64,000 nucleotides of DNA, taken from a virus. A model generated the notes under the pieces. That model had not been told where the DNA came from and did not search any database. It worked only from the letters and a program-made list of their open reading frames with translations. Below, piece by piece: positions 23,410-38,314 of this stretch; positions within the stretch are counted from its first letter, which is position 1; every line of letters begins with the position of its first letter. The DNA lies in the IMG/VR virus record IMGVR_UViG_3300046167_000032, positions 1 to 64,000 of that record; one strand, written 5' to 3'. The position numbers and the translations under genes are program-made.

Positions 23410-23703
23410 TTACCATTTAACTTTGTGTGACCAGTACTTAGCACTTAGCTTACTAGTCGGTTTACCTTGAGCATTATGTCTAGCATAGTAACTCTTCTTA
23501 CGAGCTTTATCTTTAGCTGATGTAGGATTCTTACCTGCACCACGTACACCCTGTTGTCCAAAGCGAATAAACTTATACGTGTCCCCTTCTTTAGCCATCA
23601 CACAGTGAGACTTCTTAGGGTGACTAGGTGTCCTCTTAGGCTTGTTTACACCCTTGAGTCCTTCCTCTTTCATTTTATTCTTGACTCGCTCAGGTATTGC
23701 CAT
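23410..23703 (-). CDS. Small basic phage protein
   Basis: IRFGQQG...RKKSYYARH...SAKYWSHKVKW. Confidence 0.75.
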   Translation of the reverse strand: MAIPERVKNKMKEEGLKGVNKPKRTPSHPKKSHCVMAKEGDTYKFIRFGQQGVRGAGKNPTSAKDKARKKSYYARHNAQGKPTSKLSAKYWSHKVKW

Positions 23704-23902
23704 CTGTCCAACCTTCTTTTTTCATTGCCCACTCTACGTGTTCTAAAGTAAACTTACGACCATAGTAGGCTTCCACTGCAGTTCTTACGTAGAATACATC
23801 ACTGTGAGGGATATGTAAGTTCTTTAAATTACCATCAAGTAAATGATCGTAGAATTGTTTAAGAACATCGTCTGTATATAGTTTTACTGATTTCTTTGCC
23901 AT
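23690..23902 (-). CDS. Hypothetical protein
   Basis: First ORF of the leftward operon. Confidence 0.6.
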   Translation of the reverse strand: MAKKSVKLYTDDVLKQFYDHLLDGNLKNLHIPHSDVFYVRTAVEAYYGRKFTLEHVEWAMKKEGWTDGNT

Positions 23903-23908
23903 TGTCAA
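23879..23908 (-). promoter_or_regulatory. Leftward promoter
   Basis: TTGACA-N16-TAAAACTA. Confidence 0.5.
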
Positions 23909-24716
23909 TAGTTAATTGCACAAAGTCCTCGCCTAAGAAGGCGATTTCTATGTACGTACATACCTCATTGCTATTGCTTATCACTGTACATGTATACTTA
24001 TATGTTTATATAGTTTAAGTATTATATAATTATAAGTATATATCATAGTACATGTATACTGTACGTGTATCACTTATAGTGACCCTACCCGGAATATACT
24101 ATATACATAGTTTTACACACTCTGTACCCCATGTCAACCCCTAATCGTACATTGGTAACAAACTGTGATGATATTGTAATATATTGTAACATATAGTGAT
24201 AGTATTTTGTGATCACAAATATACCCTGCACGTATACATAACACCATATCTGTATAGTGGTTAACACTCTCATATTTCTGATCTGTGTAATTGTACATAT
24301 CATACTAACGTACACCCCCCGTATGCCCCCTGCCCACCCTAGCTTGAGGTCGTTTGCGTGCGCCCACAGGCACATGTACACGCATGGTGAGAGCATAATG
24401 CATAGGCACATACACCACACACGAGGAATATTCCACAATAACAATCACTTATAGTGATATGACAACTGTTATACAATCAGTTGCCTTCACATATGGTGCA
24501 AGCATAGGCATGCTACGAGCAAGTGACGTGTGTTGCGCAGTTGATGCACATATACACCCACCCATAGGCATGACCTACACATCACGTGCATCACACGCTC
24601 GGCTGCCTACACGTATACGCATGCGCACTCGCACTGAGAGCTGATTCGTTTTGCCCTCCAAAAAGTGATTCGTTTTTACCCTAACAAGTCCCACATTGGA
24701 CTTAATTTGCTCCATA
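23909..24716. other. Non-coding divergence region; candidate genome-end, packaging or origin region
   Basis: No credible gene; alternating purine-pyrimidine tracts, short direct repeats and palindromes; lies between divergent transcription units. Confidence 0.5.
24108..24137 (-). promoter_or_regulatory. Leftward promoter
   Basis: TTGACA-N16-TAAAACTA. Confidence 0.6.
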
Positions 24717-24784
24717 TACTACTACGTAGTAAAATAGGTGTTGACACCATCGGATTTATCTGATCTAACTGATTGCATCGAAAC
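24717..24784 (+). promoter_or_regulatory. Early promoter element 1
   Basis: TACTACTACGTAGTAAAATAG-N3-TTGACA-N9-TTATCTGAT-N10-GCATCGnAAC; duplicated at 26707. Confidence 0.7.
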
Positions 24785-24818
24785 GGCGAACTTGCCAAAC
24801 TCAAAAAGGAAAAATCTT

Positions 24819-25430
24819 ATGACAAATACAAACACAGCTAACACCGACACAAACACAGCAGTACTTGCTACACTTGAGCTACAAGGTGCTGACATAGCTC
24901 GACAATGGAAAGCTATCACCAAAGGTGACAAAGCACGCTTCACTCAGCATACACAAGCCAATGGCTTCGACATGCAGTTAGGCAAGCTTATGGTTGCACT
25001 TTCAGAAGAGTGTGAAGGTCGTATCAAGTCAACTAGACTTGCTGATTGTGGCATCAACATAGTTGATAAGAGAAGACGTAGCGAAGCTAAATGGTTCGTT
25101 GAAAACGAAGTTGAATGCCGTGAGTTTATTGCTAAAAGCAAGAAAGGCTTCACATCACTTACAGCATTGCAAAGTGCAATGTCAAAAGCCAACAAGCAAG
25201 CATCATCTACTGATGATAAAGCGTCAACAGGTAAATCTAGCAAAGCTAGTGCAACACCAACTGAGGCTACTAGCGAAGCTAAACCTGCAACTAAAGAGAC
25301 AATCTTTAAAGAGTTGCTTGCCATATGTAAGGCTAGTGATGTGAACATCATGGACATTGCAGAGATGCTTATGCTTGAAGCAGAAATGCTTACACCAGAA
25401 GAATTAGCAGATGAAAAAAAGGTAGCATAA
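24819..25430 (+). CDS. First early gene, hypothetical protein
   Basis: AAAGGA RBS before MTNTNT; about 203 aa. Confidence 0.8.
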   Translation: MTNTNTANTDTNTAVLATLELQGADIARQWKAITKGDKARFTQHTQANGFDMQLGKLMVALSEECEGRIKSTRLADCGINIVDKRRRSEAKWFVENEVECREFIAKSKKGFTSLTALQSAMSKANKQASSTDDKASTGKSSKASATPTEATSEAKPATKETIFKELLAICKASDVNIMDIAEMLMLEAEMLTPEELADEKKVA

Positions 25431-25434
25431 TATA

Positions 25435-25497
25435 AGTTTACTTATAGGTTACATCTGGCTCTCTCTCCCTAGCTAGGTGTAACTTTATAAGTTAACT
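25435..25497 (+). other. Long RNA hairpin (processing site or terminator candidate)
   Basis: About 25-bp stem with G-U pairs on the + strand and a CTCTCTCCCT loop. Confidence 0.6.
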
Positions 25498-25535
25498 AGT
25501 CCAACGTTGGACTTACATATGAAAGGAAATGTCAA

Positions 25536-25670
25536 ATGGCATACAGAACATCAAGGCAACGTAAGCGTCAAGAACAGCTACGTGAAGCATTCAAGCACAC
25601 AGTCATGGGTGCAATGATGGGTTTTATTTTGGGTAGTGCTTTATTTCTACCATTTTTATTGAAAGGTTAA
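25536..25670 (+). CDS. 44-aa membrane peptide, not in ORF track
   Basis: MAYRTSRQRKRQEQLREAFKHTVMGAMMGFILGSALFLPFLLKG; GAAAGGA RBS. Confidence 0.7.
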   Translation: MAYRTSRQRKRQEQLREAFKHTVMGAMMGFILGSALFLPFLLKG

Positions 25671-25674
25671 TGTT

Positions 25675-25869
25675 ATGTTAATTGAACGTAAATCAATTTA
25701 TTCTGGCACTATAAGTGCAATGGATATTGATGTAACACCAACGCAGATTAATGCATGGTACTGGCAGGGTGAGCTTATCCAAAATGCTATGCCTAACATA
25801 TCTGCACAAGAACGTGAGTTCATTGCTACAGGTATCACACCCACAGAGTGGGACGAAATGTTTAACTAG
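25675..25869 (+). CDS. Hypothetical phage protein
   Basis: LIQNAMPNISAQEREFIATGITPTEWDEMF; RBS present. Confidence 0.75.
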   Translation: MLIERKSIYSGTISAMDIDVTPTQINAWYWQGELIQNAMPNISAQEREFIATGITPTEWDEMFN

Positions 25870-25905
25870 TCCAATGTTGGACTTATATCTTGAAAGGATA
25901 TTAAA

Positions 25906-26133
25906 ATGATTAAAGTAATCAATGCTGATAAGGCTGTAACAATTGCGTTTGAAAAAAGAACTAAGTATCTTAAAGACGTATTAGAACTTGCTATAAGTGA
26001 GGGCAGAAATGCTTTGAGTGTTTCATCACACAAAACTAATTCTGTAGATGTGGCACAATTGCGTGAGTATGGCTACGATGTTTGGGTAAATCCAGACAAT
26101 GGTGATGCAGTCATAAGTTGGGGTATTGTATAA
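25906..26133 (+). CDS. Hypothetical protein
   Basis: GAAAGGA RBS following a palindrome copy. Confidence 0.75.
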   Translation: MIKVINADKAVTIAFEKRTKYLKDVLELAISEGRNALSVSSHKTNSVDVAQLREYGYDVWVNPDNGDAVISWGIV

Positions 26134-26465
26134 TGGGTAATCGAGCGACACTTGAAGTAATAAATCAAGACTATTCTTGGCAAGAAACACCTTGCTACAT
26201 ATATGTACACTGGTCAGGTAGCCCTGAGACTGTGACTGAACTAGTAAAAGGTGCATCATCTAACATGCGTAAGTCTGATGTTAACTATGCTACTGCTAGA
26301 CTAATAGCTCACATATGTAACTATGTGGAGGGTGGTTTGTCTGTAGGTGTACAAAAGAACAAAGAAGATTGGGATAATGGACACTATGTCATAGATATGA
26401 GTAATGGTAATATCAAGAATGATGATACGCTTATAGCTGAAGGCATACAGTTTGGTAATTTTTAA
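26133..26465 (+). CDS. Hypothetical phage protein
   Basis: MGNRA...IYVHWSG; TAATG coupling. Confidence 0.75.
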   Translation: MGNRATLEVINQDYSWQETPCYIYVHWSGSPETVTELVKGASSNMRKSDVNYATARLIAHICNYVEGGLSVGVQKNKEDWDNGHYVIDMSNGNIKNDDTLIAEGIQFGNF

Positions 26466-26505
26466 CTTAGTCCAATGTTGGACTTAATATTATGAAAGGA
26501 TTTAT

Positions 26506-26703
26506 ATGAAATTTAAATTGCATACAAACACACATTACACCATGCCAAAGCCTAGTCGTGCAGATCGTATAGCTCGGCTGCGAGCACGTATTGAGTTACA
26601 GCGTAAGTGTGCTTCACCTGTTGTCGATGTAGTGTATGACAACAAAAATAATGTAGTAGAGTTTGTGAGTGACTCAGGTTGGAAAACCTACAGCAAATCA
26701 TAA
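26506..26703 (+). CDS. Hypothetical protein
   Basis: GAAAGGA RBS following a palindrome copy. Confidence 0.7.
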   Translation: MKFKLHTNTHYTMPKPSRADRIARLRARIELQRKCASPVVDVVYDNKNNVVEFVSDSGWKTYSKS

Positions 26704-26706
26704 TAC

Positions 26707-26774
26707 TACTACTACGTAGTAAAATAGTGCTTGACAACAGGTTGGTTATCTGATTTGTTGTTAAGCATCGGAAC
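26707..26774 (+). promoter_or_regulatory. Early promoter element 2
   Basis: Same architecture as 24717-24784; immediately followed by a palindrome copy. Confidence 0.7.
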
Positions 26775-26814
26775 TAGTCCAACGTTGGACTTCACATAAA
26801 AAGGATTACATACA

Positions 26815-26991
26815 ATGAAAAAGAATAACATGTTCAACACTCCTGATTCAGTTGATCAGATACCTGCATTGATAAAGAACGTAATAAAGTTTATTGAAGC
26901 ACCTAAAGGTAAAGGTGATACAGTTGAAGCAATAGTTTCAATCATGATGATAAATAATTTTATTGCAGATAACAATGGGGATACACAGTAA
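26815..26991 (+). CDS. 58-aa hypothetical protein, not in ORF track
   Basis: AAAGGA RBS; MKKNNMFNTP...; stop overlaps the next ATG. Confidence 0.65.
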   Translation: MKKNNMFNTPDSVDQIPALIKNVIKFIEAPKGKGDTVEAIVSIMMINNFIADNNGDTQ

Positions 26992-27611
26992 TGTATAGTC
27001 GTGATGTAAGAGAAATCAAATCGTTTGTCCGTTGGGGTGGTACAGATGCATTTGTAAACACTGGCCTGTTTGTATTGCTAACGATACAAGCAGGTTTATC
27101 CACAGTAAAAGGTAGCATGGAAAAAGTAAGCATAGATGGTGTGAAAGCTAATTGCTTATGGGGCAAGAAAGGTGAAGGTTACAAGTACCTTATCAAGCAT
27201 GGTGACTACTTACGTGGTGAGATGTACAAGATTGCAGATGCAAAAGGCTACAAAAGTGTTGAAGCTTGTGCTGATGTTGTTGAGTTATTTATGCAAGTAC
27301 CTAACTTGGGTATGGTCAAGGCATCTTTCCTTGCTCAATGCCTAGGTTTCAATGTAGCTTGTATTGATGGACACAATGTCAAGCGACTAGGTATCAATCC
27401 CAACGCTGTAAAGACACCACCAAAGGCTATGAAGCCAGAGACTGCACGTCGAAAGGTTGAAGAGTACATAGTACTTACTCAACGTGCTGGTTCAAAGTAT
27501 TGGTGGAACACATGGTGCGAGTATGTTGCAGGTAACAAAGCTAATCGTAAGCTTACTACAGGCAATGTCGTATCTAAATTTCATGTAGAATGTATAACAT
27601 ACGGGAGGTAA
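26991..27611 (+). CDS. Helix-hairpin-helix DNA glycosylase-fold protein
   Basis: VPNLGMVKASFLAQCLG (HhH with Lys) followed by ACIDGH (Asp-x-His). Confidence 0.6.
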   Translation: MYSRDVREIKSFVRWGGTDAFVNTGLFVLLTIQAGLSTVKGSMEKVSIDGVKANCLWGKKGEGYKYLIKHGDYLRGEMYKIADAKGYKSVEACADVVELFMQVPNLGMVKASFLAQCLGFNVACIDGHNVKRLGINPNAVKTPPKAMKPETARRKVEEYIVLTQRAGSKYWWNTWCEYVAGNKANRKLTTGNVVSKFHVECITYGR

Positions 27612-27618
27612 CATATGA

Positions 27619-27792
27619 ATGCAGTATACTATGAAGAACTTTATTAAGTTCACTAAGTCCAATGTTGGACTAACTACTAAGAAGAAGAAGCCTAAGCGTG
27701 ATGATTGGAAGCGTGAGCGTTCAACAGCACGTAAGATTAAAACTAATATGCAAAGAGGCATAACAGATTACAAACCAAAACGTATAGCATAA
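27619..27792 (+). CDS. 57-aa basic protein containing a palindrome copy, not in ORF track
   Basis: GGAGG RBS; MQYTMKNFIKFTKSNVGLTTKKKKPKRDDW... Confidence 0.6.
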   Translation: MQYTMKNFIKFTKSNVGLTTKKKKPKRDDWKRERSTARKIKTNMQRGITDYKPKRIA

Positions 27793-27806
27793 GGAGCTAA
27801 CATAAA

Positions 27807-28133
27807 ATGACTACTATTTCAAAACCACTAGTAAAGAACACTAACCCAGAACTATATGTGAAGCACACAGCACACATGTCAAGAGCAGGTATTCATACCT
27901 ACAACTATGCGTCTGTTGATGATTACATTCTACAGAACTGGAGAGTGTCTACTATAAAACAGATTGCATCTGACTTAAACGAATACCCTAATCGTATTGT
28001 ATATAGGGTACAAGTACTACAATCTGTAGGTTTAATAGGTAGCAAGTACACTACTAAGCGTGCTACATTGAAGACACAACAAAAGATGCTTGTCACTTGG
28101 TTGGCAGATATCAAACAACAATTGGAGGCGTAA
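27807..28133 (+). CDS. Putative HTH DNA-binding protein
   Basis: STIKQIASDLNEYPNRIVYRVQVLQSVGLI resembles a winged HTH; AAGGAG RBS. Confidence 0.55.
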   Translation: MTTISKPLVKNTNPELYVKHTAHMSRAGIHTYNYASVDDYILQNWRVSTIKQIASDLNEYPNRIVYRVQVLQSVGLIGSKYTTKRATLKTQQKMLVTWLADIKQQLEA

Positions 28134-28138
28134 TAACA

Positions 28139-28378
28139 ATGTCAAATAAAACACAAGCACAGTGGAAAGCTGAACGTATGGCTAGGTATAAGGTAAATAA
28201 AAAGTTATTGGCTAGTATGTCTAAGGAACAGCGTGAAGCTATCGAAGAAGCTCAAGAGGTTTTGCGTGACACGTATTCTATGGCTACAGAAGCGCATGAT
28301 CTATACATGTCAGACATAGGTAAGATTGAGTCAGCTTGGTATTCACTGAGGTTTGCATTCAAAACTGAGGAAGAGTAA
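28139..28378 (+). CDS. Hypothetical protein
   Basis: GGAGG RBS before MSNKTQ. Confidence 0.7.
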   Translation: MSNKTQAQWKAERMARYKVNKKLLASMSKEQREAIEEAQEVLRDTYSMATEAHDLYMSDIGKIESAWYSLRFAFKTEEE

Positions 28379-28381
28379 CGT

Positions 28382-28618
28382 ATGCCTGTTATGGCATATG
28401 AAGTCACGTTAGCCATTGACAGTGAGAATACTATCGTTAAGTTAGATGATACGTATCCTTCTGTAAGTGACTGGCGTACAGCTTCGGAGTTTGCTATTCA
28501 TATGATGATGCGTAGCAAACCTGATTCACGAGTTGAGTTTGTCGATTGTAGTGAGAGAGTACATGAGGTATACTCATCATGGGGATACATAAGTGAAACC
28601 CCACCATCAATTCAATAA
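28382..28618 (+). CDS. Hypothetical protein
   Basis: ORF whose stop overlaps a palindrome copy. Confidence 0.7.
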   Translation: MPVMAYEVTLAIDSENTIVKLDDTYPSVSDWRTASEFAIHMMMRSKPDSRVEFVDCSERVHEVYSSWGYISETPPSIQ

Positions 28619-28654
28619 GTCCAACGTTGGACTAACCATGAAAGGAAATATAAA

Positions 28655-28963
28655 ATGCATTGGGATACATACTTAGTTGATTTAGATATACCAAAAGAAT
28701 GGAAGTGTACAAGCCATCATCATGATGAACTACCAAGCTACCAAGTAAATGGTCTACACATATGGATGGGCAGCCATGATGCAAATGTGCGTGAGGCTGA
28801 TGCAAAAAACATTTGGGGTACAGATTGGGGTATGTTTACACGTTTCATAGTTCAATTGGCAAGCACCTACAATGGTGAGTCAGATGATCATGCATGGCTA
28901 TGTAGTACTGATAGCTTTGAAGAGCTACAACAATTTGTAAAGGAATATAACAATGAAGATTAG
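28655..28963 (+). CDS. Hypothetical protein
   Basis: GAAAGGA RBS following a palindrome copy. Confidence 0.75.
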   Translation: MHWDTYLVDLDIPKEWKCTSHHHDELPSYQVNGLHIWMGSHDANVREADAKNIWGTDWGMFTRFIVQLASTYNGESDDHAWLCSTDSFEELQQFVKEYNNED

Positions 28964-30058
28964 AACACAACTATCCTTATGTGATGGCTTATCAGGTGGT
29001 CAGATAGCAGGTGATAAGATAGGCTTACGTGCTGATACTTATATAGCTAGTGAGATAGACCCACATGCTATTAAAATTACACAGAAAAATTATCCTGAAC
29101 ACTGTACAAGTAGGTGATATGACTGAGTGGAGATCATGGGATATTGATTGGTCTAAAGTTGATCTAGTTACAGCAGGTTTCCCGTGTCAGGCATGGTCAG
29201 TTGCAGGTCAACAGAAGGGTGATCGTGATCCACGAGGTCAATTGTTTTGGGTAGTACTAGACATCATGCAACATGTGCTAGAGCACAACCCTAATGCTAA
29301 GTATCTAATGGAGAATGTTAGAATGTCGAATGCTTTTGAGGAGTACATCACGTATCACACTGAGCAAGCATTGCCTAATGTAAACAAGTACCTAATCAAC
29401 AGTGCGCTAGTGTCTGCACAGAATAGGAAACGTTTCTATTGGACTAACATCGAAGGTATTCAACAGCCAGAAGACAAAGGTATAGTATTGAAAGATATAC
29501 TCGAAGGATGGTTTGACTGACAGAACTAAGTCACATTGTCTTGATGCTAACTATTTCAAGGGTGGTAATCTCAAGTCATACTTCGAGAAGCATCGCAGAC
29601 AGTTGGTGTTTAGTCCTAGTGGTATGTGCCACGTAGGTGACGCTGATTTGAATGGCAATCAGTCTATCAAGCGTGTGTATGCAGCCGAAGGTAAAGCACC
29701 TACCTTGACTACTATGGGTGGTGGACACAGAGAACCTAAAGTATTGGTGAAGGGTGGACGTATGGTTGGGCGTAGACTAGATGCTAATGGTACTCGTAAA
29801 GACTATGACACATCTATACCAATCAAACAGATGATTGAAGTTAGAGAAGATGATAAAACTAATTGTCTAACTACAGTGACTAAGGACAGTATCTTGATTG
29901 AGGATATGTCTTGGCGTAAGCTAACACCATTAGAATGTGAACGCTTACAAACAATACCAGATGGGTACACTGAAGGTGTATCAAACACACAGCGTTACAA
30001 GATGCTCGGTAATGGGTGGACTGTAGACGTGATAGCACACATATTGAAAGGGTTATGA
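28953..30058 (+). CDS. C5 cytosine DNA methyltransferase, split by two single-base insertions (about 29098 and 29505)
   Basis: Motif I LSLCDGLSGG, SEID, GFPCQ (IV), ENV (VI), QNRKRFYW (VIII), RKLTPLECERLQT (IX), YKMLGNGW (X), spread over three frames. Confidence 0.9.
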
Positions 30059-30660: not shown

Positions 30661-31500
30661 ATGGAGAATAATATGACTTATATACCTGATCACCTAGACT
30701 TCAAAGTAGCATTTGAACCAACAAAAATGCACGATAAGAAGTACGTTATCAATGAAGATACAGGTGAATACCTTGGCATTGTGGGTAATACATTCCAGTG
30801 TGCAGCACATGGTGATTTCTTTCGTGGTGTAATGGACACTGCTACACAAGAGCTAGGTGCTGATGCATTAGATGGTGCAGTCAATCAGTTTAGAACAGCA
30901 CGTAATGGTGCATGGGCTATGCTTGACGTGACACTACCTAACATCAAGACTAAAATTACAACTGACAAAGCTGAGACTGAGATTGGTAACAGGATCATCA
31001 GCTTACATGGTATTGATGGATCATGTAGTAACCAAGTATTCTTTGGTGCTATAGATTTCTTCTGTACTAACGGCATGATTACAGGTGATCACGACAAGGT
31101 GCGTAAGAAGAACACATCTAACTTTACTATGGATAGTTTTATCTACGAACTAAATCGTGCTCGTACTGACTTCTTTGATCAAGCTAAGAGGATGCAAGTG
31201 TGGGCAGAGACTAGCCTCAAGTTCATCAATGTAAAAGATTTGATTGAGAGTATCATTAGTTCTAAGACTAAGGCTGAGAAGATGTTCAGCTTGTATAATG
31301 CTGAGGCTAGTGTGCGTGGACACAACAAGTTTGCACTGTATTCTGCCTTCACTAACTACGCTAGTTATGCTGATGAACGTAATGGTTTCAACCTACGTAA
31401 CACGGGACATGACACACAAGCTATCAACATGTGGTCACGTGAGCAAGAGGTATCCAAGTGGGTAAGCAGTAATCAGTTTCGTGTATTGGATGTTGCTTAA
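30661..31500 (+). CDS. DUF932-family protein
   Basis: HGIDGS...FFCTNG motif and N-terminal LGIVG..FQ. Confidence 0.75.
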   Translation: MENNMTYIPDHLDFKVAFEPTKMHDKKYVINEDTGEYLGIVGNTFQCAAHGDFFRGVMDTATQELGADALDGAVNQFRTARNGAWAMLDVTLPNIKTKITTDKAETEIGNRIISLHGIDGSCSNQVFFGAIDFFCTNGMITGDHDKVRKKNTSNFTMDSFIYELNRARTDFFDQAKRMQVWAETSLKFINVKDLIESIISSKTKAEKMFSLYNAEASVRGHNKFALYSAFTNYASYADERNGFNLRNTGHDTQAINMWSREQEVSKWVSSNQFRVLDVA

Positions 31501-32622
31501 TGCCTAAGCTACCTAGATATGTACAAGAGAGAGTATCACCTCACGGGGTGATCTCTTACAGATTTAATCCGCCGCAGAACTTAGTGGATGAGGGTGTGGT
31601 ATCACGTCAAGAGTATGGCACTGATCTCAAGGAAGTGCGTAGTATTGTGAAGGAGTTGAACGCAGACATTGACCATTGGCGTGAACAAAAAGCGACAGTG
31701 GTACAGATAAAGCCATCAAGTAAGGTGACAGATTTGATTAACTACTACTATCAATCTAATGATTTCAATATGTTACGAGACACAACTAAGGTGGATTACA
31801 GATACTTCCTAACCATACTCCATCAGACTATGGGTGGTAAGAAGTACGACAGTGTAACAACTAAGGTTGCCAAGCAAGCATATGAAGGAGTGGGTTAAGC
31901 GTGGTATTAGTTTCGCTAATCATGCTGCAACATGTGCAAGTAGGGTATACAACTACGCTATTGACATGGAACATGCCACACAAAATCCTTGGACTAGCAT
32001 CAAGCGTAAGGCATTGCCACAGCGTAAGGTTGTATGGTCACATGGTGATGTTGTCAGGTTTCTTGATTATTCGTACAGCGATTTTGACTACAGGAATGTG
32101 GGATTGATTGTGCACATGGCATATGAATGGTGTCAACGTCTAGGTGACATGCGTACACTGAAGTGGGAGAACATTGACTTGCGTACACAGCGACTAGAGT
32201 TAGAGCAGAGTAAGCGTAGGGCAGATGTATCACTACCAATATCAGATGATCTATGCCACATGCTGAATGAACAGCGTAATGACTTTGGCTTTCAAGATTA
32301 TGTAGCACCACACCCACGACCAATGGGCGGTAAGTACCAACCATATGCAATGGAACGTTTGTCTAAGGTAGGTAGACGTGTCATGAGATTAGCTAAGTTA
32401 CCAGAAGAGTTACGTCTAATGGACTTACGTAGAACAGGTGTGACACAGATGGTTGATGCAGGTGTACCAATTGGACAAGTGATGTCTGTTACTGGACACA
32501 ATCATGTGTCTTCTGTGCAACCATATATGAAACATACATATGATTCTGCAAATAATGCCTTGACACAGAGAAATGTAAGTGTACAATCGAGTGCAGCGAG
32601 TAACATAGAAAGTGATACATAA
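31500..32622 (+). CDS. int: Tyrosine integrase/recombinase, split by one extra base at about 31886
   Basis: CQRLGD (R), QSKR (K), MDLRRT (R), VTGH (H), QPY (Y); TATGAAGGAGTGG gives Y-E-E-W when one base is removed. Confidence 0.88.
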
Positions 32623-36268: not shown

Positions 36269-38314
36269 ATGATACTTACCTTAGATGTAGAGAACACAGT
36301 AGTAAAAAGAAATGGTAAGCTTCACCTTGACCCATTCGAGCCTGAGAACACACTTGTTATGGTGGGTATGCTAGATGATAACAATAACGAAACTATTATT
36401 ACATTCGATCATTCAGAGCAAACACCAACTGCAAATGGACGAGCTATTGTTCAAGATAAATTGGACAAGACTCGTCTGCTTGTAGCACACAATGCACCCC
36501 ATGATCTACTGTGGTTGTGGGAGTCAGGCTTTACATACGATGGTGATGTATTCGACACTATGCTTGGCGAGTACGTATTACAACGTGGTCAGAAGCAACC
36601 ACTATCCCTTGAGGCATGTGCAGAACGTTACATGCTAGAGACACAGAAGCAAGACTCATTGAAGGAGTGGCTCAAGGCAGGTAAGTCAGTACGTGACATG
36701 AATCACGCTGAGTTATCAGAGTACTTGTCTGCTGACCTTCATGCTACACAGCAATTGTATGATCGTTTGCGGATATCATACGAGGGATGCAGTACACTAG
36801 AACCAACCATCAAGCTGACTAATCAGTTAGCTGTACACCTAGCACGTATATACCAACGTGGTTTGAAGGTTGATATGAATGCACTAAACTCTGTTAGAGA
36901 AGAGTTCGAACAAGAACGTAATCAACTAACAGTTTCACTTGAGCAGCAGACTGCAGAGCTAATGGGTGACAGACCTATTAACCTCAACAGTCCAGAGCAA
37001 TTGTCTTGGGTTATATATAGTCGTAAGCCACATGATAAGAAGTTCTGGAAAGAATTGTTTGATGATCGTATGCCTGACGCAGAATACAAACGTAATGTAA
37101 ATGCGTACAGTAGTAAGTTATTCAAACAGAAAGCTAGTCAATGCCGTACATGTAATGGCACTGGCAAAACATGGAAACAAAAGAAGGATGGTACACCATA
37201 TGCTAAACCAAATAGATGCGTTAGTTGTGACGCTACAGGATATAGTTTTACTGATATTGATAGTAGGGTGGCTGGGCTAAAGTTCACACCACCTACTGCT
37301 AAGTGGATCAGTGCCAATGGTTTTGGTACAGGCAAGGACAATCTATTATTCCTTGAAGGTATTGCAAGATCAAGAGGTATGAAAGAAGCTGAGACATTCT
37401 TACGTAATGTACGTAGGTTGTCTGCAGTTGAGACTTACCTCAGCAGTTTTGTTGAGGGCATTGCTAACTTCGTCAAGCCTGATGGCCTACTGCATGTACG
37501 TTTATTACAGCATCGTACAGGTACAGGCAGACTATCAGGTGCTGACCCTAACATGCAGAACATGCCACGTGGTGGTACATTCCCTGTTAAGAAGGTGTTT
37601 GTGTCACGTTGGAAAGGTGGACAGATCATGGAAGCTGACTTCGCACAGCTTGAGTTCAGAGTTGCTGCATACTTATCACAAGATATGACTGCCATTGACG
37701 AGGTGACTACAGGCTTTGATGTGCATAGCTATACAGCTAAGGTTATCAGTGATGCAGGTCAACCTATGTCACGTCAAGAAGCCAAGGCACACACATTTGC
37801 TCCTCTATATGGGGCGAGTGGTTTCGGTAGATCACAAGCAGAAGCTGCGTACTACAAACAGTTCACTACTAAGTATGCAGGTATTGCTAAGTGGCATACT
37901 GCACTTGCCAAAGAAGCACTAAACACTGGCAAGATAACAACTCCATCAGGGCGTGAGTTTGCATTCCCTGATGTACAGCGTAGACGATTCGGGGGTGTGA
38001 CATATTTCACACAGATTAAAAATTATCCTGTACAATCGTTTGCTACAGCAGACATCGTACCTATCTCACTGATATACATAGATAAGTTATTGATGGCTAA
38101 CAAGTTACACAGTTGTGTTGTGAACACAGTCCACGATTCAATTGTAATTGACATACACCCAGATGAAGAGGAAATAGTATTGAAGATCATACAGGTAGCC
38201 AACGACAAGTTGATACCTATAGTAAATAAGAAGTGGTCACTGGACTTTAACATACCACTATTATTAGAAGCAAAAATTGGCCCTAACTGGCTTGACACAA
38301 AAGACGTAGTGTGA
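36269..38314 (+). CDS. polA: Family A DNA polymerase with DnaJ-type zinc-finger insertion
   Basis: Exonuclease LDVE/AHN, TGRLS, DFAQLEFR, RQEAKAHTFAPLYG, VHDS; insert CRTCNGTG...CVSCDATG. Confidence 0.97.
   Translation: MILTLDVENTVVKRNGKLHLDPFEPENTLVMVGMLDDNNNETIITFDHSEQTPTANGRAIVQDKLDKTRLLVAHNAPHDLLWLWESGFTYDGDVFDTMLGEYVLQRGQKQPLSLEACAERYMLETQKQDSLKEWLKAGKSVRDMNHAELSEYLSADLHATQQLYDRLRISYEGCSTLEPTIKLTNQLAVHLARIYQRGLKVDMNALNSVREEFEQERNQLTVSLEQQTAELMGDRPINLNSPEQLSWVIYSRKPHDKKFWKELFDDRMPDAEYKRNVNAYSSKLFKQKASQCRTCNGTGKTWKQKKDGTPYAKPNRCVSCDATGYSFTDIDSRVAGLKFTPPTAKWISANGFGTGKDNLLFLEGIARSRGMKEAETFLRNVRRLSAVETYLSSFVEGIANFVKPDGLLHVRLLQHRTGTGRLSGADPNMQNMPRGGTFPVKKVFVSRWKGGQIMEADFAQLEFRVAAYLSQDMTAIDEVTTGFDVHSYTAKVISDAGQPMSRQEAKAHTFAPLYGASGFGRSQAEAAYYKQFTTKYAGIAKWHTALAKEALNTGKITTPSGREFAFPDVQRRRFGGVTYFTQIKNYPVQSFATADIVPISLIYIDKLLMANKLHSCVVNTVHDSIVIDIHPDEEEIVLKIIQVANDKLIPIVNKKWSLDFNIPLLLEAKIGPNWLDTKDVV

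Follow-up and report, generated by a model that had tools for sequence, protein, structure and literature searches.

Why would a phage repeat one 16-bp palindrome between its early genes, and which protein, if any, reads it? The question is posed by IMG/VR record IMGVR_UViG_3300046167_000032, the first 64,000 nucleotides of which (hereafter the window) were analyzed here. An exhaustive scan of the 64-kb window for the pattern AGTCC-N6-GGACT recovered exactly seven sites, starting at 24687, 25498, 25868, 26469, 26776, 27656 and 28618, and none elsewhere, in agreement with a preliminary description of this DNA made from its letters alone. The expectation from shuffled sequences is 0.04 sites for this form and 0.8 for a form tolerating three mismatches, and no shuffle reached the observed count. 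We found that particular base pairs of these palindromes covary with particular residues of the protein encoded by the first early gene, g1 (24819-25430, plus strand, 203 aa); hence, judging from the sequences of the protein and its sites, g1 is very probably the factor that reads the palindrome in a sequence-specific manner.

Covariation of the palindromes with the first early protein

Both DNA polymerase identity and gene order place the window in an HMO-2011-type marine podophage. Its polymerase (36269-38314) is 79% identical to that of the Roseobacter phage CRP-345, 76% to that of CRP-1 and 66% to that of the Puniceispirillum phage HMO-2011, and the characteristic order of early ORFans, DUF932 protein, integrase, primase, helicase, thymidylate synthase, polymerase and ribonucleotide reductase is retained, with the structural genes on the opposite strand. 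Phages of this type are among the most abundant marine phage groups, and the main comparative paper on them mentions neither promoters nor early genes (PMC9038755). Our literature searches found no description of a palindrome array. To our knowledge, HMO-2011-type phages have no RNA polymerase of their own, and we know of no published work on the timing of their gene expression. Self-comparison of the full record (80,374 bp) showed that positions 1-25159 are about 95% identical to 54568-80374, with gene replacements distinguishing the two ends (the second being our locus L005). The record is on this account about 1.45 genome lengths, two strains joined head to tail, as opposed to a genome with a terminal repeat. 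The true genome is about 55 kb, with the seven copies grouped in a 4-kb stretch where the rightward gene block begins, and an eighth palindrome, at 79901 of the record, is the other strain's duplicate of the first copy.

Relatives were located through the DNA polymerase and through exact-pattern scans of IMG/VR rather than through megablast, which returned no match to the early region among GenBank phages. In the exact-pattern scan 92 stretches were recovered, and arrays of three to seven copies were present in about 40. A further 80 IMG/VR loci were fetched by homology to g1, thereby avoiding selection on the palindrome itself: 74 carry at least three sites (three to eight copies), and the other six stop no more than 614 nt past g1. 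The sites in these loci span -500 to +4500 relative to the g1 start, which is to say a single early block of 5 kb. Both g1 and the array are present in CRP-1 and CRP-345, whose palindrome is the same as that of the window, and in HMO-2011, which has five sites, all GTCCG-ACAG-CGGAC. Neither was found in CRP-207, CRP-2, HTVC033P or CRP-3, the early genes of which are tightly packed and devoid of a repeated palindrome. Across the whole set, g1 is present in every array-bearing relative and absent from the array-less ones.

The layout of the window's array is the same in 74 related loci, where the copies occupy stereotyped places: ahead of the first early gene by a few hundred bases (one copy, in nearly all relatives); right after the promoter-like repeats; in the gaps between a stop codon and the next ribosome-binding site (RBS); inside the gene of a small basic protein (g9 in the window); and, in most clades, in frame within the variable linker of g1, where the site is always read as S-N-V-G. 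Homologues of g9 occur in 14 loci, including CRP-1 and CRP-345, and the in-frame palindrome is conserved in several clades. The arms of the palindrome hardly vary: 135 non-redundant sites are perfect, and genuine variants with a single mismatch number only about five. Constancy of this degree rules out a hairpin maintained solely as a structure; it requires a reader that recognizes the sequence.

The identity of that reader emerges from the variation that does exist. The genomes sort cleanly into classes; in two of these the sites are all GTCCA..TGGAC and all GTCCG..CGGAC, respectively. A hybrid class, with GTCCG..TGGAC beside GTCCA..TGGAC copies, is seen in one clade (the mixed clade) and, independently, in locus L220; a further class, CCCCA..TGGGG or CCCA..TGGG, is seen in L183, L184 and L175. 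A single column of the g1 alignment, residue 115, perfectly separates the GTCCA and GTCCG classes: Thr115 goes with A-T at pair 5/10 in all 33 unique g1 proteins of that class, Ser115 with Lys119 goes with G-C at the same pair in 12 of 12, and Ser115 with Arg119 goes with the hybrid G..T sites in both of the separate lineages. The two residues share one face of the g1 helix GFTSL-T-ALQ-x-AM. A g1 tree from which the covarying columns had been excluded implies 10 changes of site class, of which well-supported branches force at least five, and residue 115 changes along with the class in 10 of 10 independent pairs (5/5 on supported branches). All the copies in one genome switch class together with g1; for instance, the sister phages L119 and L121 have homologous flanks at four positions, at each of which the site has been switched in place. 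A second determinant lies at the start of a helix, where the residues DKRRR (83-87 of g1) give way to PDQRR or DSQRR exactly where arm base pairs 1-2 change, these variants going with CCCCA or CCCA arms instead of GTCCA. The preliminary description had envisaged that the palindrome might covary with one particular protein, and the tracking of pair 5/10 by residues 115 and 119 is such a case.

Three further observations concern g1 and its possible competitors. Inspection of two translations indicates that gp74, the g1 homologue of HMO-2011, has a diverged N-terminal domain and a C-terminal domain close to that of locus L055. In genomes of the GTCCG..CGGAC class (L106, L117, L124, L144, L150, L171, L181 and others), an ATGT center is close to universal and an ACGT center very rare, meaning that GACGTC is avoided, while genomes of the GTCCA..TGGAC class retain many ACGT centers. 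As for other binders, the preliminary description had named 27807-28133 (g10) beside 24819-25430; a protein atlas offered a weak lead for g10, a MarR/FaeA-like winged helix (score 0.89), and we rejected it as being present in only 12 of the earlier loci and not needed. The integrase was likewise rejected as the binder, since it also occurs in palindrome-less relatives.

The same data bear on the idea that the palindromes are protein-independent RNA hairpins (mRNA stabilizers, host RNase sites or weak terminators) or else DNA-hairpin promoters for an unrecognized phage RNA polymerase. The sites are indeed intercistronic, the hairpin is stable, and a scan with sigma-70 and terminator consensus sequences flagged one copy as terminator-like. 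However, a purely structural hairpin would be free to drift, whereas the arms stay constant among phages with DNA polymerase identities of only 66-79%, and the concerted switching of all the copies of a genome with g1 already disfavors any such scheme. Moreover, most copies have no U-tract after them, and the hairpin-promoter idea was tested by examining the large virion proteins, which revealed no RNA polymerase domain. Host RNase III sites in particular were rejected, as the stem has only 6 bp. Taken together, we regard these schemes as extremely improbable.

Layout of the array in the window

The first palindrome (24687-24702, AGTCCCACATTGGACT, with one arm mismatch) lies 14 nt upstream of promoter-like repeat 1 (24717-24764, plus strand). 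This element, located upstream of g1, comprises the palindrome TACTACGTAGTA followed by TTGACA, and it is 79% identical to promoter-like repeat 2 (26707-26754, plus strand), the second copy of the duplicated element. Directly 3' of the g1 stop is a long hairpin (25435-25497, plus strand), which abuts palindrome copy 2 (25498-25513); the RBS and start of g2 follow. Copy 3 (25868-25883) overlaps the TAG stop codon of g3 (25867-25869) and precedes the RBS and start of g4, and copy 4 (26469-26484) begins just past the g5 stop codon (26463-26465), which ends 3 nt short of it, and precedes the RBS and start of g6. Copy 5 (26776-26791) lies 21 nt downstream of promoter-like repeat 2, at about +9 to +24 if TTGACA is a -35 element, and is followed by the RBS and start of g7. 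Copy 6 (27656-27671) is inside g9 (27619-27792, plus strand), which encodes a 57-aa Lys/Arg-rich protein in which the site is read in frame as S-N-V-G. Finally, copy 7 (28618-28633) overlaps the TAA stop codon of g12 (28616-28618) and precedes the RBS and start of g13.

Thus, one copy follows a promoter-like element, four occupy gaps between a stop codon and an RBS, one is in a gene and one lies upstream; no more than two of the seven are adjacent to a copy of the duplicated element. These positions bear out much of the preliminary description, namely the three stop codons overlapping or nearly abutting a palindrome, and the copies just before promoter 1, just after promoter 2 and within a coding frame. 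The layout of palindrome, AAAGGA and ATG that it reported is also found at five copies, with a palindrome-to-AAAGGA gap of 7-10 nt in place of the 6-9 nt given there. Palindrome-bearing intergenic gaps measure 37-105 nt, as against the abutting or overlapping genes that have no palindrome between them; therefore, the palindromes delimit translationally coupled groups.

The hairpin after g1 has a stem of more than 20 bp, counting G-U pairs, and is followed by UUUAUAAG. The region 25428-25516, which includes the adjoining palindrome hairpin, folds at -34.6 kcal/mol (z = -6.55), a value equalled by no shuffle. It may be a terminator or insulator that isolates the expression of g1. The HMO-2011-like clade does not have this hairpin, with only about 23 nt separating the g1 stop from the next site. 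In the consensus scan mentioned above, promoter-like sites were no commoner than in shuffles and the duplicated element was missed; an Rfam search of 23500-29500 in E-value mode gave a single chance-level hit only. The 12-bp palindrome TACTACGTAGTA heads both promoter-like repeats (24720-24731 and 26710-26721) and may be the site of another regulator; the equivalent place in HMO-2011 holds a different palindrome, TACTTTAGTGAAAGTA. Between the late and early blocks, which diverge, is a non-coding stretch of 700 bp (24000-24700). Short repeats abound in it (CACTTATAGTGA and GATTCGTTTT, twice each, and ATAGGCA motifs), and it may serve as an origin or as a control region.

DNA operators or RNA hairpins as possible targets of g1, and its modeled fold

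On what form of nucleic acid, then, does g1 act? We consider it somewhat more probable than the alternatives combined that g1 is a dimeric DNA-binding repressor for which the sites serve as operators and roadblocks, in the manner of the mycobacteriophage stoperators. The multi-operator array that the preliminary description had advanced as its first hypothesis accordingly remains the best-supported of its proposals. The two-fold symmetry of the site extends beyond the stem to positions 6/9 (A/T) and -1/+1 (A/T), with a variable central dinucleotide; symmetry beyond the stem combined with a variable center is the usual pattern of a dimer on a 14-16-bp operator and would suit such a protein. Although the early transcript predicted by the position of the duplicated promoter element does not include the upstream copy, this copy is conserved and in most cases belongs to the site class of its genome, and the in-frame copies have been retained within a g1 linker that otherwise varies freely. 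The model of g1 shows an all-helical N-terminal domain (pLDDT 91, from 50 sequences), a disordered low-complexity linker and a small helical C-terminal domain, an arrangement of putative binding domain, linker and small C-terminal domain that we count as evidence for a DNA target. We count on the same side the weak but recurrent matches to the DNA-binding domains of KorB, SopB and VirB. In a clade comprising L119, L121 and L140, TATATG stands 17 nt after TTGGAC within a further palindrome, ATATACAAAGTATAT (L119:4715, L119:5726, L121:5715 and L140:4708). This is seen at the upstream copy as well as after g1, and the site may accordingly overlap a -35 element in these phages.

In outline, such a system could operate as follows. 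The host polymerase would start at the promoter-like elements, and g1 would be made first, from a unit ending in the very strong hairpin at 25435-25497. As a dimer, it would bind double-stranded DNA with one N-terminal helical domain on each half-site, (A)GTCCA, the small C-terminal domain joining the dimer across the flexible linker. Dimers occupying copy 5, which would span about +9 to +24 relative to promoter-like element 2, would use it as an operator, and the sites in the stop-RBS gaps and inside genes would be roadblocks to the elongating host RNA polymerase. With the accumulation of g1, initiation and elongation would both be blocked and the whole early block turned down. The promoter of g1 itself has its site upstream rather than downstream, whereby g1 would be regulated differently, and the in-gene site that most relatives have in g1 might provide negative feedback. 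The recurring unit of 35-47 nt (stop, palindrome and RBS) would double as a recombination joint for the gain and loss of early genes.

Several lines of evidence weigh against a DNA-binding repressor. The fold matches of g1, with Z at most 5.4, are too weak to identify it: by VIA-align, the best is KorB (1r71_A; Z 5.4, rmsd 3.2 and 87 aligned residues), which is below the level trusted for helical matches, followed by a second KorB structure (8qa8_A, Z 4.2), SopB (Z 3.3) and VirB (Z 3.0). Foldseek gave no match for either of the g1 models; neither g1 nor any of 18 homologues matched a Pfam family at E up to 1; and a profile of 18 g1 sequences matched none of the PDB chain sequences at E up to 10, a library that should include the repressor structure reported in PMC9283540. 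PHROG had no match for g1 either, the Pfam and PHROG annotation of the early proteins as a whole being nearly empty, and the protein atlas gave a lead only, DUF3102. Because of these weak fold matches, the empty Foldseek search and the lack of any Pfam or PDB sequence match, DNA binding is a property that we infer for g1. The promoter-like repeats, too, have poor -10 elements, that of repeat 1 not being evident, and their promoter function and positions are deduced from the repeats themselves. Lastly, no g1 homologue was found in 185,579 species-representative bacterial and archaeal genomes; consequently, there is no prophage evidence for a role in lysogenic immunity, and a role in lytic-cycle timing is favored over one in prophage immunity. 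The integrase nonetheless lends the latter some plausibility. Many HMO-2011-type members carry one, and integration is known for one of them, CRP-3 (PMC9038755).

The asymmetries of the sites also count against DNA operators and lead to the main competing explanation. On the sense strand the center is ATGT in 144 cases and ACAT in 29, as against 1505 and 1667 in the surrounding sense strand (0.9:1), with the upstream copies showing little of this bias. Hybrid sites are G..T rather than A..C at about 10:3, a ratio that is not significant as the events are non-independent, and the flank T(T)AAC, to the right of the site, is not mirrored on the other side. These features would be natural if g1 read the palindrome in early mRNA, as a hairpin made of a 6-bp stem and an AYRU loop. 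Folding of such a hairpin yields about -7 kcal/mol without engaging the Shine-Dalgarno sequence, an RBS and start codon follow within about 45 nt at 123 of the 265 non-redundant sites, and in most relatives the hairpin also occurs once inside the message of g1 itself. The orientation preference would then be one for AUGU over ACAU, and the flank an asymmetric UAAC after the stem. Further, the series of loop-closing pairs, A-U, G-U and G-C, parallels the series Thr, Ser with Arg and Ser with Lys in g1, such that the recognition code would have walked this wobble path several times; in both L220 and the mixed clade the G is always on the 5' arm, and an Arg-rich helix (DKRRRSEA) is among the specificity determinants. 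Bound 2-10 nt upstream of each Shine-Dalgarno sequence, g1 would repress or time the translation of every early unit; alternatively, it might protect the polycistronic RNA or process it, or else modify the polymerase during transcription, as N does at nut. In this event g1 would be a new kind of sequence-specific RNA-hairpin-binding protein controlling early translation, processing or polymerase processivity.

Against an RNA target, however, the stem is near-invariant and the center of the loop variable, the opposite of most hairpin-protein recognition, and the conserved upstream copy would sit outside the RNA. The strand bias may have other causes, either deamination of the loop cytosine on an exposed non-template strand or the spread of one variant among copies by the recombination that shuffles cassettes. 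The stoperators, which are also oriented with transcription, show that DNA sites can follow its direction (PMC9283540). The count of hybrid sites has no significance when the spread of variants between copies is taken into account and, given this non-independence, was not relied on for settling the matter; the outer pair (-1/+1) is A..C as often as G..T. We thus hold the RNA hairpin to be a possible but rather doubtful target of g1. The preliminary description's argument for a DNA site over a simple RNA hairpin holds up to this extent, with a protein-read RNA hairpin keeping a minor share of the probability.

The weak fold matches point to another alternative, wherein g1 would behave like KorB or ParB, loading at the palindromes and spreading or bridging from them, to silence distant genes or to organize or segregate the genome. 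The multicopy 16-bp palindrome with its ACGT center is of the kind seen in such systems, the best matches of g1, though weak, are to ParB-family DNA-binding domains, and KorB exerts global repression via scattered palindromic OB sites (PMC11790492). Against this, g1 has neither the ParB N-terminal CTPase domain nor any Pfam match, no ParA-like partner was found among the annotated genes, and the sites are restricted to 5 kb, precisely at gene junctions. We deem this behavior quite unlikely. By the same token, the parS-like centromere of the preliminary description finds no support: the resemblance to the KorB, SopB and VirB folds is its sole link, and the sites occur only in the early block. 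KorB with its OB sites in the IncP plasmid RK2 (1r71, 8qa8; PMC11790492) nevertheless appears, on the modeled structure, to be the closest structural and architectural analogue of g1, likewise combining multicopy palindromes with a binding domain, a flexible linker and a dimerizing domain at the C terminus. It differs in its ParB-type N-terminal CTPase domain and partner ParA, its fold match to g1 being weak (Z 4.0-5.4), as well as in having no sequence similarity to g1, in which the region before the KorB-matched domain is a helical segment of about 45 residues. In the KorB-operator structure, specificity reportedly comes from residues outside the classical helix-turn-helix (Thr211 and Arg240). 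Extrapolation from the aligned ranges, as opposed to a residue-level alignment, would place Thr115 of g1 near KorB residue 211.

Cassette exchange and neighboring genes

The palindromes also mark places where the gene content of close relatives differs. Each of g3, g4-g5, g7 and g13 is missing from one close relative, and L063 and L075 contain additional, inserted genes, with the breakpoints falling at the palindrome or at the adjoining RBS/start repeat. It is probable that this gain and loss is a by-product of recombination between the 35-47-nt intergenic repeats. Cassette boundaries of the kind suggested earlier are hence found at the units of palindrome and RBS; the suggested involvement of the tyrosine recombinase is not, the integrase being unlinked to the palindromes because it is also present in relatives without them. 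One could go further and take the palindromes to be primarily recombination sites, integron-like or PeSL-like and possibly served by that recombinase. The insertions and deletions bounded by these units would fit, as would the precedent of PeSL repeats, which drive such shuffling in T4-type phages (PMC2839356). Yet breakpoints lie as often in the repeated RBS or flank as in the palindrome; integrase homologues occur in the palindrome-less CRP-207, CRP-2 and CRP-3; the copies inside genes and the copy upstream of g1 bound no cassette; and the covariation with g1 requires a reader other than the integrase. In addition, the 6-bp arms and 4-bp center are too short for a typical tyrosine-recombinase core, integron attC sites and such cores having a 6-8-bp overlap and 7-13-bp arms. 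A primary function in recombination is, in our estimation, very improbable.

Beyond the array, the DUF932 protein (30661-31500), immediately upstream of the integrase, has a distribution matching that of g1 and the array: it is found in CRP-1, CRP-345, HMO-2011 and 32 loci, and is absent from the early regions of array-less relatives. The tyrosine integrase (31500-32622) is broken into two overlapping open reading frames (ORFs), 31500-31898 and 31867-32622, and is a single 374-aa gene in CRP-345. A C5 DNA methyltransferase (28953-30058) is similarly broken into three overlapping ORFs (28953-29117, 29065-29520 and 29513-30058), reflecting either frameshifts or assembly errors.

Analogous systems and implications for marine phages

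If g1 is indeed a DNA-binding repressor, the closest known system would, by analogy, be the operator/stoperator array of cluster A mycobacteriophages (L5 gp71 and the TipsytheTRex repressor; PMC9283540, PMC6550527). There, too, one phage protein acts on many copies of a short site, situated at promoters and in short stop-start gaps; transcription depends on the host RNA polymerase, and the specificities of repressor and site diverge among related phages. Stoperators are biased in orientation relative to transcription, to which the strand bias of the central dinucleotide, the sole asymmetric part of the site described here, may or may not correspond. The bound mycobacteriophage repressor hinders the host polymerase in initiation as well as in elongation, as g1 is predicted to do. 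The stoperator is an asymmetric 13-mer bound by a monomer with two DNA-binding domains (a helix-turn-helix and a Stoperator domain), and it is spread over a whole temperate genome. In contrast, the site described here is two-fold symmetric over 14-16 bp, its reader is the product of the first early gene, with one binding domain and a probable dimerization domain in the model, and the array is confined to a 5-kb early block. The profile comparison with PDB chains found no sequence similarity between g1 and gp71-type repressors.

The operators of lambdoid Cro and CI proteins (e.g., the 14-bp operators of phage 434) offer a second parallel, being dimer-sized palindromes with conserved outer positions and a variable center; Cro is likewise the first gene of an early operon, and the specificity classes seen here resemble immunity groups. 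Unlike Cro and CI, g1 has no HTH_3/Cro-type domain detectable by Pfam, and its five to eight sites, which for the most part lie between genes at a distance from promoters, contrast with the tripartite operator placed over divergent promoters in lambdoid phages. The PeSL cassettes of T4-type phages (PMC2839356) share the placement of repeated regulatory units between non-essential early genes, where they act as joints for shuffling, with insertions, deletions and replacements between close relatives bounded by the units. They consist of a strong sigma-70-like promoter and a terminator hairpin with no dedicated reader, whereas here the palindrome co-evolves with a protein, only two of seven copies adjoin a promoter-like element and the U-tract is mostly missing. 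For an RNA target, the comparison would be with lambda N and boxB, T4 RegA, and Csy4 and its repeat hairpin, in which a small protein encoded by a phage or a mobile element recognizes a short hairpin or site that recurs close to translation starts in many early messages, an Arg-rich helix being a further point in common. These proteins, however, read loops or single strands, the stems of their sites drift, and no copies lie outside transcripts.

Whichever nucleic acid is bound, an abundant group of marine phages gains a concrete candidate regulator in g1, together with its sites and a rule of one residue to one base pair that has been switched about 10 times in nature and is directly testable with a few point mutants and oligonucleotides. 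The repeat units explain where the early 'host-takeover' genes are exchanged. Finally, the specificity classes (GTCCA, GTCCG, hybrid and CCCCA) resemble immunity or incompatibility groups, and they may shape co-infection and recombination among marine phages that occur together.

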